The position numbers and the translations under genes are program-made. Below, piece by piece: positions 35,465 to 46,330 of a stretch of 64,000 bases of DNA; position 1 is the first letter of the stretch, and each line of letters opens with the position of its first letter. The notes below the pieces were generated by a model that saw only the letters and a list, made by a program, of their open reading frames with translations, searched no databases and was not told the DNA's origin. The stretch is from a phage, in sequence record PZ347775.1. One strand, written 5' to 3'.

Positions 35465-35938
35465 TTATTTGAATGATTTGACGTACTGAATAGAGCCTTT
35501 GCTATTCACGAAAGCGATTTTACCATTTTTATTATACATGGTAGCAGTACGCTGATAGCCATAAGTTTGCTTACCAGATTGATAACCAACTAATGCAAAA
35601 TTATCTTCACCCATTTTATTCTGTTTAGCACGAATGCGTTCATGCCCATGCGCCATAAGAACCTTAGCATCACCAGTTGCAATGGATCTACGAGTTTTTT
35701 CATCTTCAACTGTATTAACAAAGTCGTCAAATGAATCAAATTTAGCATGGGATTTATTATACAGTTTTCCATCTACTGCATAATTGTATCCTTGTACATC
35801 CATCTCAACTTCTGTACCATCATCTAATACAGCAGTGATTTTTTGACCTTTTTTAAATTTCAAAAGATCAGTAAAAGATTCAGCAATAATTTGAGAATTA
35901 ATAGCTGCTTCAGTAATAAATTCTTGATATGTTTTCAT
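35465..35938 (-). CDS. internal-protein-like capsid-targeted protein (N-terminal CTS MKTYQEFITEA)
   Basis: 157 aa beginning with the conserved capsid targeting sequence of T4 internal proteins. Confidence 0.65.
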   Translation of the reverse strand: MKTYQEFITEAAINSQIIAESFTDLLKFKKGQKITAVLDDGTEVEMDVQGYNYAVDGKLYNKSHAKFDSFDDFVNTVEDEKTRRSIATGDAKVLMAHGHERIRAKQNKMGEDNFALVGYQSGKQTYGYQRTATMYNKNGKIAFVNSKGSIQYVKSFK

Positions 35939-35954
35939 GTGTATCCTTTAATTT

Positions 35955-36272
35955 TTATTCTTTAGGGAAGTTTTTAGAATATGCATCATAAAGCTTATTT
36001 CCAATACGGCGGAAAACTCTAGCCGCAAAACGATTTTCTGGGTTTTTAATCATGATTTGCATCATATAAGTACCCGCGTCAGAAAGAGCTTCTTCATAGT
36101 ACCCGTTAATTTCTTTAAGAGTCCTACGTTTACCACCAGGACCATCAACAGTGATTTTCCATTTACCTGTAGAAGTGCGACTTGGCGGCTCAACTTGTTC
36201 AATCCAGATATAACCGCCTTCTACACGTTGTCCTTGGGCAGATTCTGCAATAAATTCTTTAAACGTTTTCAT
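35955..36272 (-). CDS. internal-protein-like capsid-targeted protein (CTS MKTFKEFIAES)
   Basis: 105 aa with CTS-like N-terminus, adjacent to e as are T4 ipII/ipIII. Confidence 0.65.
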   Translation of the reverse strand: MKTFKEFIAESAQGQRVEGGYIWIEQVEPPSRTSTGKWKITVDGPGGKRRTLKEINGYYEEALSDAGTYMMQIMIKNPENRFAARVFRRIGNKLYDAYSKNFPKE

Positions 36273-36343: not shown

Positions 36344-36874
<531 letters not shown>

Positions 36875-41378: not shown

Positions 41379-41429
41379 CTTATTTCCTGTTTTAATTCGT
41401 GGTTTTAATATACTTATTTATACTAAAAA

Positions 41430-42130: not shown

Positions 42131-42206
42131 TGGTCGAGGCAGTAGGGATCGAACCTACGACCTAGGACTTAGAAGGTCCTTGCTCTTCCTTCTGAGCTAT
42201 GCCCCG
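42131..42206 (-). tRNA. tRNA-Arg (anticodon UCU)
   Basis: Hand-folded cloverleaf on minus strand: acceptor CGGGGCA/TGCCTCG, anticodon loop CTTCTAA, T-loop GGTTCGATCC, encoded CCA. Confidence 0.8.
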
Positions 42207-42210
42207 TAAT

Positions 42211-42286
42211 TGGGGTGACCGATGGGAGTCGAACCCATGACTACGAGAATCACAATCTCGAGTTCTACCAACTGAACTACGGCCAC
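42211..42286 (-). tRNA. tRNA-His (anticodon GUG), no encoded G-1
   Basis: Acceptor GTGGCCG/CGGTCAC, anticodon loop TTGTGAT, discriminator C, CCA; resembles E. coli tRNA-His. Confidence 0.7.
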
Positions 42287-42400
42287 ATTAATACCTACTC
42301 CAACAATCAAGATGTCTTCACACGAAATTAAGAGAAGAGTGATCAGTTCAACCCCGATAATCGCGTCAAGTAGATATTAATGTGACAGTTGTCACAAATT

Positions 42401-42475
42401 TGGCGGACGTGATAGGATTCGAACCTATAACCAATCGCTTAACAGGCGATCGCTCTGCCATTGAGCTACACATCC
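42401..42475 (-). tRNA. tRNA-Asn (anticodon GUU)
   Basis: Acceptor GGATGTG/CACGTCC, anticodon loop CTGTTAA, T-loop GGTTCGAATCC, CCA. Confidence 0.75.
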
Positions 42476-42479
42476 AAAT

Positions 42480-42566
42480 TGGTGGGGAGTGATGGAGTCG
42501 AACCACCCGAGTCGCAATGACAATGGATTTACAGTCCACACCGCTACCTCTACGGGATAACTCCCC
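42480..42566 (-). tRNA. tRNA-Tyr (anticodon GUA), class II with long variable arm
   Basis: Acceptor GGGGAGT/ACTCCCC, anticodon loop CTGTAAA, long variable arm TGTCATTGCGACTCG, CCA. Confidence 0.75.
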
Positions 42567-42579
42567 TTAATTCTTAATT

Positions 42580-42654
42580 TGGTGGCCCTGGGTGGAATTG
42601 AACCACCATCTGGCGATTATGAGTCGCTTGCTTGAACCTTCCAGCTACAGGGCC
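42580..42654 (-). tRNA. tRNA with anticodon CAU (Met, or Ile if C34 is modified as reported for T4 tRNA-Ile)
   Basis: Acceptor GGCCCTG/CAGGGCC, anticodon loop CTCATAA, T-loop GGTTCAATTCC, CCA. Confidence 0.7.
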
Positions 42655-42655
42655 T

Positions 42656-42732
42656 TGGTGCTGATTGACGGAATCGAACCGCCGACCTTCTCATTACAAG
42701 TGAGTTGCTCTACCTACTGAGCTAAATCAGCA
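42656..42732 (-). tRNA. tRNA-Thr (anticodon UGU)
   Basis: Acceptor TGCTGAT/ATCAGCA, anticodon loop CTTGTAA, T-loop GGTTCGATTCC, CCA. Confidence 0.8.
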
Positions 42733-42736
42733 AAAC

Positions 42737-42826
42737 TGGCGGAGGCGATAGGATTTGAACCTATGAGTCGCCGGAGCGACTGCCGGTTTTCAAGACCGGT
42801 GCATTAAACCACTCTGCCACGCCTCC
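42737..42826 (-). tRNA. tRNA-Ser (anticodon UGA), class II
   Basis: Acceptor GGAGGCG/CGCCTCC, anticodon stem CCGGT/ACCGG with loop CTTGAAA, long variable arm, CCA. Confidence 0.8.
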
Positions 42827-42828
42827 AG

Positions 42829-42902
42829 TCTCCATACAAGGATTTGAACCTTGGACCTCCTGATCCCAAATCAGGCGCTCTACCAAACTGAGCTACACGG
42901 AG
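42829..42902 (-). tRNA. tRNA-Pro (anticodon UGG), CCA not encoded
   Basis: Acceptor CTCCGTG/TATGGAG, anticodon loop TTTGGGA, T-loop GGTTCAAATCC; 3' end is A-CU not CCA. Confidence 0.75.
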
Positions 42903-42912
42903 TAAATTAAAT

Positions 42913-42986
<74 letters not shown>

Positions 42987-42991
42987 AAATT

Positions 42992-43078
42992 TGGTGCGAG
43001 AAGTGGGACTCGAACCCACAAGGAAATCATTCCGCAGCATTTTAAGTGCTGTGCCTTTACCAATTTGACCATTCTCGC
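42992..43078 (-). tRNA. tRNA-Leu (anticodon UAA), class II
   Basis: Acceptor GCGAGAA/TTCTCGC, anticodon stem CAGCA/TGCTG with loop CTTAAAA, long variable arm, CCA. Confidence 0.8.
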
Positions 43079-43079
43079 G

Positions 43080-43152
43080 CTGGGAATAAAGGACTCGAAC
43101 CTTTGCATCCTGGAATCAAAATCCAGTGCCTTACCAACTTGGCTAATTCCCA
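43080..43152 (-). tRNA. tRNA-Gln (anticodon UUG), CCA not encoded
   Basis: Acceptor TGGGAAT/ATTCCCA, anticodon loop TTTTGAT, T-loop GGTTCGAGTCC; first gene of the cluster. Confidence 0.8.
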
Positions 43153-43944: not shown

Positions 43945-44130
43945 TTATTCACCTTTAGAAATTTTATCCATAACGATAGCAATTAAACCAATTAAAAATG
44001 CTACTACAAGTGAAAATACATTTTCTGCTGTAGTTAATAATCCGCATATAAATCCAACAAACATTGAAAAACTAAAAGCGGAAGCAGAAATTGCAATAGC
44101 AACATTTCGAATTAATTCACAACGTTTCAT
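43945..44130 (-). CDS. small membrane protein
   Basis: 61 aa, largely hydrophobic. Confidence 0.45.
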   Translation of the reverse strand: MKRCELIRNVAIAISASAFSFSMFVGFICGLLTTAENVFSLVVAFLIGLIAIVMDKISKGE

Positions 44131-44198
44131 TTTATTCTCCTCAGTAGTTGATAGGGTAATAATATCACTACCCCATCTAAAAGTAAACGGTTTATAAA

Positions 44199-44507
44199 CT
44201 ATTTTATTCCGCGTGATGCAATTGTGTTCTGCCGTTTAACACCAGTTTGTTTAAAGTCATGATTGTCGATTTGATCGGTACGAGCAACACCGAATGATGA
44301 TTTAATCTTAGCTTTAGATCCTTTAGTTATAGAAATAAACATCTCGGAAGCCCCTTTCTTAAAGTCCGAGGCGATTACTTCAACGCCGTTCTTAGCAAGT
44401 GACCTCAGAATTGCCTCCGCGTACTCATCATCAAGACTCGCCTGAGTATTAATAACGAATGTCTTTGGTGCAGTCGCTTCATTGATAAATTCTTGATATG
44501 TTTTCAT
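44199..44507 (-). CDS. internal-protein-like capsid-targeted protein (ipI locus; ORF track to 44519; CTS MKTYQEFINEA from internal Met)
   Basis: CTS motif 4 codons into the ORF; position upstream of 57B matches the T4 ipI locus. Confidence 0.6.
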   Translation of the reverse strand: MKTYQEFINEATAPKTFVINTQASLDDEYAEAILRSLAKNGVEVIASDFKKGASEMFISITKGSKAKIKSSFGVARTDQIDNHDFKQTGVKRQNTIASRGIK

Positions 44508-44574
44508 TTTGATTTCCATTTAGTTTTGTTTTGATAGGGTAATAGTATCACAACTAAACCACCGTGTAAACAAT

Positions 44575-44847
44575 TTATTTTAAATAAATTGCATATTTTT
44601 TATAACCAGCCGTCTCGTGACGCAGACCTTTTTCATTAGCAAAGCGTTCAATATTATTAATTTGATTCTGATCAAGTTCTGAAATATCAAATACAAAAAA
44701 GTTTCGTTTATTTCCTAACGTTACATGATTCGTCAAATCAATGTTATAAAGATGATTTATATTATCAATCATAGTCTTAACAGATTTGCTAATTTTTACT
44801 TCTTCATTAAGAGCAGATTCAACGATAAACTCTTTGAAAGTTTTCAT
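44575..44847 (-). CDS. internal-protein-like capsid-targeted protein (CTS MKTFKEFIVES)
   Basis: 90 aa with CTS N-terminus. Confidence 0.6.
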   Translation of the reverse strand: MKTFKEFIVESALNEEVKISKSVKTMIDNINHLYNIDLTNHVTLGNKRNFFVFDISELDQNQINNIERFANEKGLRHETAGYKKYAIYLK

Positions 44848-44919
44848 TTTATTTTCCTAATTAATTTTGATGAGGTAATAGTATCACTACCTCATCAACG
44901 TGTAAACAACTTTGTGAAA

Positions 44920-45616
<697 letters not shown>

Positions 45617-45617
<1 letters not shown>

Positions 45618-46330
45618 TATAGTACCTTTAGTGTATTTTTAATTTTAGAAAAAAGTTCTTCAAGAGAACCATCGTTTGTAATTACTAAATCGCCATCACG
45701 AATTGGCAATCCAGCTTCTGTAATATGAGTATCATTGGATTTTTGACCAGGACGAACTACATGAATTACTGTAGCACCCATCGCCCTAGCCGCATCCATT
45801 TCATGATCTTGACGAGTATCAGGAACGATATAATAATCATAACCTGAGTTAAATTTATCAAGATAATCTAAAGCAAATAATTTTACCCAATACATGCGGT
45901 CGAAGTTATTAACAATCAAATCCGTACCTAGGGCTTGCATCAGACGACGGACTGACCATTGATCTTCAATATTATTTATAACGTCAGTAATCTTGTTAAA
46001 TGCTACGAAATTAACTGCGTCATCAAAAACAAACACACCTTTAATTGGGCTTTTACTATTAAGATAGCAAAATGCTTGTTCCATAATCGTAATTACTTCT
46101 AATTTAGTCAGATTTAAATTAGTTTCACGATCATAGTCAATTCCTTCAAACTCTTTACGAGTTAAACAAGGATAGCCAGTGTTTGCTGCAAATACGCCCC
46201 ATGCATAAGCCAATGCATCTTTAATAGGACCAGCAAGTTGATATTTAACTGCAGAATAATTATTCATGATAAAATCTGCAGTAGTATCTTTTCCACTACG
46301 CTTTACACCACTTAAAAAGATTAGTTTCAT
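45617..46330 (-). CDS. 1: deoxynucleoside monophosphate kinase gp1
   Basis: 237 aa, N-terminal P-loop FLSGVKRSGKDT; T4 position. Confidence 0.85.

Follow-up and report, generated by a model that had tools for sequence, protein, structure and literature searches.

Two small genes at the ipI position of a Tequatrovirus are ip9 and ip7, likely cassettes of a known array of probably injected internal proteins

In phage T4, the interval between trna.4 and 57B contains a single internal-protein gene, ipI. Which genes can take the place of ipI in a related phage, and what would their products do? This question is raised by two small open reading frames (ORFs) at the same position on the minus strand of a phage sequence of 64,000 nucleotides (record PZ347775.1), which as a whole is called the window below. 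An earlier note, made from the letters of the window, had described the two ORFs as further genes with the capsid-targeting leader of T-even internal proteins. Our results identify them as ip9 and ip7, members of two named internal-protein families. It is likely that both genes are cassettes of the polymorphic internal-protein array at the ipI position, and that their products are packaged, processed and injected, each to block a host nuclease. The coordinates of all features are given in Table 1.

The 90-residue product of the first ORF matches the family phrog_7673 'internal head protein' with an E-value of 9.4e-56 (positions 1-90 of 90). A tblastn search recovered it from 175 phage records, with 100% identity in Escherichia phage ECO07P2, 93% in ip9 of VR5, 80% in Ip9 of RB32 and 79% in Ip9 of RB15 (Q38376). 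The 102-residue product of the second ORF matches phrog_2667, also named 'internal head protein' (E 3.2e-42, positions 1-102), and was recovered from 284 phage records; among the matches are genes with the name ip7 in T2 (94%), CC31 (96%), VR20 and VR25. By these sequence matches, the 90-residue ORF is Ip9 and the 102-residue ORF is Ip7. A longer ip7 start reaching position 44519 (MEIKMKTYQ...) was dismissed, because it has no ribosome-binding site and because ECO07P2 annotates the 102-residue form.

Both genes, and their order, have been described before. Judged by its gene content, the arrangement 57B-ip9-ip7-trna.4 forms part of the longer array of RB15 (ip5-ip9-ip7-ip8), which was deposited in GenBank with Repoila et al. 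1994. Other named arrays are ip5-ip9-ip7 in RB32, where the annotator remarks on 43-bp direct repeats flanking the ip genes, ip5-ip7 in T2, and ip9-ip7 with an ip8-like gene in G4498. The ip9 genes of RB15 and RB32 (79-80% identical) likewise encode 90 residues with a leader, downstream of 57B and upstream of ip7. In contrast to these phages, ip9 in the window directly follows 57B, since ip5 is absent, and its allele is closer to the VR5-type ip9 (93%). The Ip7 proteins of T2, RB15, K3, RB32 and CC31, with 102 residues and 94-96% identity, show no substantive difference from the Ip7 described here, and ip7 lies directly upstream of trna.4 in T2 and RB32 as well. Hence, the 'further' genes of the earlier note are real ORFs but not new ones, as the Ip9 and Ip7 families were first described in 1994. 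The same holds for the leader, the plasticity of the locus and the flanking recombination elements, which publications and GenBank records have contained since that year.

The source phage is a Tequatrovirus. The 901 bases around ip9 and ip7 are 99.7% identical to ECO07P2 (OP172785), and 777 phage records align with at least part of this stretch. On the minus strand, the genes are arranged in the order tRNA cluster, trna.2, trna.3, trna.4, the two small ORFs, 57B, 57A, 1, 3, 2 and 4. Synteny with T4 (trna.2/.3/.4 - ipI - 57B - 57A - 1 - 3 - 2 - 4) is exact, with the two ORFs replacing ipI. The prohead protease gp21 and the scaffold protein gp22 are encoded by the near-identical phage ECO07P2, which lends support to the proposed packaging and processing of Ip9 and Ip7. 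The adjacency to 57B (Acb1), which the earlier note had read as a compact anti-defence neighbourhood, is present, but it is the conserved T4 gene order rather than a special feature of this phage.

With respect to the ip9 allele, VR5, IME341 and Enterobacter phage CIP9 (92-93%) are nearer than RB32 and RB15, and the flanking 57B and trna.4 are typical of Tequatrovirus. This difference in affinity between the allele and its flanks would fit an exchange of cassettes among T4-like lineages.

Both ORFs start with the conserved N-terminal leader of about 11 residues that is found in T4 IPI, IPII and IPIII. The leader reads MKTYQEFINEA in Ip7 and MKTFKEFIVES in Ip9, compared to MKTYQEFIAEA in IPII and IPIII and MKTFKEF in IPI (T4 RefSeq). 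We scanned the window in six frames with the pattern M-[KE]-[STA]-[YFW]-x-x-[FL]-[ILVTM]-x-[EQ]. This gave five matches, each at the start of a real minus-strand ORF (Table 1), against a mean of 0.02 and a maximum of 1 in 100 shuffles. The number of leaders in the window is thus far above chance, and the two leader-bearing ORFs lie on the minus strand where the earlier note had placed them.

The prohead protease gp21 recognizes L/I-x-E followed by a small residue. Both leaders close with I-x-E and a small residue, which gives each precursor a predicted gp21 site (Table 1); a second candidate site in Ip9, L-N-E↓E, lies after residue 15. The same rule places the cut in IPI after residue 19, in agreement with the solved structure of mature IPI* (PDB 2jub, residues 20-95). 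The leader and the I-x-E site are kept in three Ip9 relatives (P0036, P0037 and P0039) whose bodies share only 36-40% identity, which indicates selection on the leader itself. Behind the leader of Ip9, the AlphaFold2 (AF2) model (predicted local distance difference test, pLDDT, 78) shows a short linker, followed by an alpha/beta body some 70 residues long. Ip7 has a predicted beta-alpha-beta-beta-alpha core and a disordered, basic Lys/Arg-rich tail at residues 74-102 (pLDDT 68, core 74-86). The predicted mature proteins would comprise 92 residues with an isoelectric point (pI) of 9.7 for Ip7, and 75-80 residues with a near-neutral pI of about 8 for Ip9.

Table 1. Features of the internal-protein array and other leader-bearing ORFs in the window; arrows mark predicted gp21 cuts.
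Feature	Coordinates	Strand	Evidence and remarks
57B / Acb1	44920..45375	-	Pfam PF23474, E 2.6e-60, and synteny; conserved flank, upstream side of array
Repeat copy upstream of ip9 (family D1)	44865..44912	-	Promoter TTTACA-N17-TACTAT, TG-extended, 44906..44878; overlapping 14-bp stem-loop 44867-44898
ip9, internal head protein precursor, 90 residues	44575..44847	-	ORF, phrog_7673, tblastn, AF2
ip9 leader MKTFKEFIVE, codons 1-10	44818..44847	-	Motif scan and L/I-x-E listing; predicted gp21 cut after E10 (IVE↓S)
Repeat copy upstream of ip7	44529..44576	-	Promoter kept, 44570..44542; 5' stem arm decayed
ip7, internal head protein precursor, 102 residues	44199..44507	-	ORF, phrog_2667, tblastn, AF2
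ip7 leader MKTYQEFINE, codons 1-10	44478..44507	-	Motif scan and site listing; predicted gp21 cut after E10 (INE↓A)
Repeat copy upstream of trna.4	44146..44193	-	Closes cassette array; promoter 44187..44159; stem-loop 44150-44177
trna.4, small membrane protein	43945..44130	-	phrog_1692, E 6e-35, and T4 synteny; conserved flank, downstream side of array
Third-locus ORF, 157 residues	40905-41378	-	Degenerate leader MKSYAQFLNE↓A; between e.8-like genes and tRNA cluster
ORF MKTFKEFIAES..., 105 residues	35955-36272	-	phrog_3966, unknown function
ORF MKTYQEFITEA..., 157 residues	35465-35938	-	phrog_3155 'internal virion protein'; Pfam DUF7412, E 5.7e-96

Internal-protein loci of T-even phages are reportedly flanked by elements of about 70 nt, in which a T4 early promoter overlaps an inverted repeat. 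The location of ip9 and ip7 agrees with this description, as both lie in a polymorphic internal-protein locus flanked by promoter/inverted-repeat elements. A repeated intergenic element stands upstream of ip9, ip7 and trna.4, with copies 69-81% identical to the reference copy. All three copies contain hexamers of the T4 early type with a TG extension (TTTAC[A/T]-N17-TA[C/T]TAT), and in two of the three a strong stem-loop overlaps the -10 region. The stem-loop upstream of ip9 reaches -18.1 kcal/mol (z -4.0), in a repeat that hardly differs from the element found upstream of T4 ipI. For the stem-loop upstream of trna.4, the value is -16.1 kcal/mol (z -2.15), whereas folding of the ip7 copy is no better than that of shuffles (z -0.08). 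Furthermore, the three repeats align with the elements upstream of ipI and trna.4 in T4 and of ip5, ip9, ip7 and trna.4 in RB32.

This arrangement resembles the mobile regulatory cassettes of the promoter-early stem-loop (PeSL) type, in which repeated units of an early promoter together with a stem-loop likewise flank variable small genes (Arbiol et al. 2010; Comeau et al. 2014). The hexamers in the window fit the consensus TTTACW-N17-TAYWAT published for the PST/T4 phage pair. In contrast to the PeSLs of RB49 and phi1, the elements of the internal-protein loci have AT-rich stems and T4 early rather than sigma-70 promoters, and the authors regard the two kinds as analogues, not homologues. According to Arbiol et al. 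2010, who cite Repoila et al. 1994, such elements occur at two highly variable internal-protein loci and may drive their plasticity; the same authors put the known internal-protein variants at more than 30.

We compared the span from trna.4 through 57B over 819 records, of which 61 cover at least 80% of the query. The shortest span is about 711 bp in slur02, which is apparently cassette-free, and the longest is about 1726 bp in G4498; T4, with ipI only, has about 1079 bp. These spans directly confirm the hypervariability of the locus, which the earlier note had claimed for ipI, and the exact synteny with T4 places the array at that locus. The array would change when the repeated promoter/stem-loop elements recombine with each other, and recombination within the conserved leader codons may also contribute. 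Such recombination is proposed as the reason why related phages have 0 to 4 different ip cassettes at this locus.

Several relatives of Ip7 deserve mention here. In phage OLB35, a protein annotated as 'ip7 protein' (P0031, 77 residues) is a chimera without leader that joins residues ~29-72 of Ip7 to residues ~56-90 of Ip9; it is probably a product of recombination or deletion within the array, or an artefact of assembly or gene calling. More distant relatives (about 47-54% identity) are found at another genome position in VR20 and VR25 and in T4-like phages of Klebsiella and Salmonella. In VR20, this relative lies at about 57 kb, compared to about 72 kb for ip9. The relative in phage ESCO10 is annotated as 'RNA polymerase-ADP-ribosyltransferase', which looks like a mis-annotation.

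How far does the likeness to the T4 internal proteins extend? T4 IPI (Ip1 and its mature form IPI*, an inhibitor of the GmrS-GmrD type IV enzyme) shares with Ip9 and Ip7 the locus, the upstream promoter and stem-loop, the leader logic, gp21 processing and a similar size. Similarity to IPI, IPII and IPIII, however, is limited to the first 11-20 residues of Ip9 and Ip7 (BLASTP, E 0.004-0.03, 9-sequence database). Both ORFs are thus distinct from IPI, and the sequence identity to IPI that would have refuted the earlier note is absent. No homology of the mature bodies to IPI* was found, and profile searches of PDB with Ip9 and Ip7 miss 2jub. IPII and IPIII (Ip2 and Ip3) have a near-identical leader of 10-11 residues with an I-x-E↓A cut and are, as is likely for Ip9 and Ip7, small injected proteins, active against other GmrSD variants (Silas et al. 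2025). Their genes, however, lie at the other internal-protein locus, with gene e and denV as neighbours, and the bodies of IPII and IPIII bear no relation to those of Ip9 and Ip7. The idea that ip9 and ip7 arose by duplication, one from the other or from ipI, and then diverged was dismissed, because similarity is confined to residues 1-11.

Scans of Pfam and NCBIfam gave no family for Ip9 or Ip7; the only Pfam matches, both sub-threshold, were DUF7412 (to the leader alone) and AHD. Sequence and profile searches of PDB with the two proteins returned nothing below E 0.6. In the AF2 models, both predicted folds are small, generic ferredoxin-like domains without an informative match. A Foldseek search of BFVD gave one significant match, an unnamed viral protein of 535 residues with 29% identity, in which an Ip9-like domain probably forms part of a larger whole.

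Relatives of Ip9 were sought in a deep protein search of 1.84 billion representatives, clustered at 50% identity. The family is small, with relatives in 11 clusters only, and none of the 11 contained an annotated relative. Together with tblastn, the search revealed relatives of three kinds: leader-bearing proteins, leaderless stand-alone proteins of 66-74 residues, and bodies embedded in proteins of 683-861 residues. Leaderless homologues are encoded in the early regions of the Guernseyvirinae phage M01 (L005, 2504-2722; 72 residues) and the Seuratvirus KS_A3 (L006, 2492-2716; 74 residues). In the Ackermannviridae, the Ip9 body lies near the C-terminus of large proteins (phrog_3867; ChubbyThor gp130, L007, 692-2743; P0038). 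In the alignment, the leaderless proteins start where the Ip9 body starts, at about residue 17-20, and hence the leader acts like a module that was added to a domain already in existence; this point alone is mildly new, and it is comparative only. We know of no T-even-type DNA in the phages of Guernseyvirinae, Seuratvirus and Ackermannviridae that have the Ip9 body. The KS_A3 copy is annotated as 'internal head protein', which probably reflects annotation transfer rather than biology.

What would Ip9 and Ip7 do during infection? The capsid-targeting leader of about 10 residues would carry each precursor into the scaffolding core of the prohead, where gp21 would cut behind the Glu of I-x-E and free the leader. 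Mature Ip9* and Ip7*, the former near neutral and the latter basic with its disordered tail, would stay inside the head and be ejected with the DNA, and would thus be in the cell ahead of any phage gene expression. There, each protein would most likely bind and block one particular host nuclease and so save the modified DNA from being cut on entry. For Ip1, Ip2 and Ip3, inhibition of one GmrSD variant each was shown, without cross-protection (Silas et al. 2025). By this example, Ip7 and Ip9 are guessed to be likewise specific inhibitors of host nucleases, and we infer their anti-defence role by analogy with Ip1-3.

Several points weigh against this interpretation. No T4 late promoter (TATAAATA) was found by motif search directly upstream of ip9 or ip7, and the nearest motif on the same strand lies at 45973-45980, inside gene 1. 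As the promoters next to the two genes are of the early type only, late synthesis for packaging would need read-through. Read-through probably supplies the late transcript, as must also hold for T4 ipI with the same upstream element. Furthermore, ip4-10 gave no reproducible target among the GmrSD variants tested, and an ip7/CLS_011 signal failed on repetition (Silas et al. 2025); this is in line with the earlier note, which had called the targets unknown. A functional paper on phage Ip7 or Ip9 was not found in the literature. Finally, the leaderless Ip9 homologues in phages not known for glucosyl-hydroxymethylcytosine (glucosyl-hmC) DNA argue against a target restricted to that modification.

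The last points bear on the alternative that survives best. Since ip4-10 had no reproducible GmrSD target, the targets of Ip7 and Ip9 need not be GmrSD enzymes, and it is possible, although rather unlikely, that both proteins are packaged and injected but aimed elsewhere than at type IV enzymes of the GmrSD family. The target could be a different defence that acts early, with other modification-dependent nucleases, hmC glycosylases and RecBCD-like or abortive-infection sensors as candidates, or else some host process that many coliphages have in common. The presence of the Ip9 body without leader in M01 and KS_A3, and embedded in the large Ackermannviridae proteins, also favours such a target. 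In contrast, all three T-even internal proteins of known target hit GmrSD enzymes, and the GmrSD panel was a small sample of a very diverse family (Silas et al. 2025).

A second alternative, which we consider improbable, is that Ip7 and Ip9 serve chiefly as structural or physico-chemical contents of the head, i.e., basic proteins that accompany or neutralize the packed DNA without a specific host target. The high pI and Lys/Arg-rich tail of mature Ip7 would suit this role, no target has been found for either protein, and the apparently empty locus in some phages implies that the genes are dispensable. However, mature Ip9 is near neutral (pI 8.0), and its leaderless homologues elsewhere cannot be head contents. 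Moreover, the rapid turnover of cassettes, the variety of unrelated bodies behind one leader and the strict one-inhibitor-one-enzyme specificity of Ip1-3 together suggest an arms race and not a bulk neutralization of charge. That the leader is vestigial, and that early synthesis from the cassette promoters yields proteins that act in the cytoplasm without being packaged, is very improbable: the early-type promoters, the missing late promoter and the leaderless homologues, presumably ordinary early genes, speak for it, but leader and cleavage site are conserved across Ip9 relatives with strongly diverged bodies, and T4 ipI shares the upstream element while its product is packaged and processed (mature form in 2jub).

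The favoured interpretation of ip9 and ip7 as injected anti-nuclease cassettes concerns one locus, and the leader scan also located three ORFs elsewhere in the window (Table 1). Two of these lie just downstream of an ORF of the size of T4 lysozyme (36344-36838), and the region 35465-36272 is presumably the second internal-protein locus, at the position of ipII and ipIII, with a content unlike that of T4. The third-locus ORF may be an unrecognized internal protein outside the two classical loci. A late-promoter motif TATAAATA occurs at 41415-41422 on the minus strand, about 37 nt upstream of this ORF. Its family, phrog_2280 (RB32ORF132c), is present in 512 phage records and is called 'hypothetical protein' in all matches listed. 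The nearby tRNA cluster (42131-43152, minus strand) contains 11 genes (Arg, His, Asn, Tyr, Met, Thr, Ser, Pro, Gly, Leu and Gln), compared to eight in T4, and lacks the segB homing-endonuclease gene.

The discovery value of the two genes is small, as hundreds of phage records already carry ip9 or ip7. Only Ip1-3 have known targets, and a sole lead towards the target of Ip7 and Ip9 comes here from comparison with the leaderless Ip9 homologues of unrelated phages. We tentatively propose, as a doubtful idea, that the Ip9 body is a portable anti-host domain of about 70 residues with three modes of delivery across coliphage lineages: T4-like phages would pack it into the head beforehand and inject it with the help of the leader, siphoviruses of Guernseyvirinae and Seuratvirus would express it from a leaderless early gene, and Ackermannviridae would carry it embedded in a protein of 680-860 residues. 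If this is true, the target would be a host factor that is relevant across very different DNA chemistries, rather than a nuclease specific for glucosyl-hmC, and the pairs of leader-bearing and leaderless proteins would show how cytoplasmic counter-defence genes were turned into injected ones.
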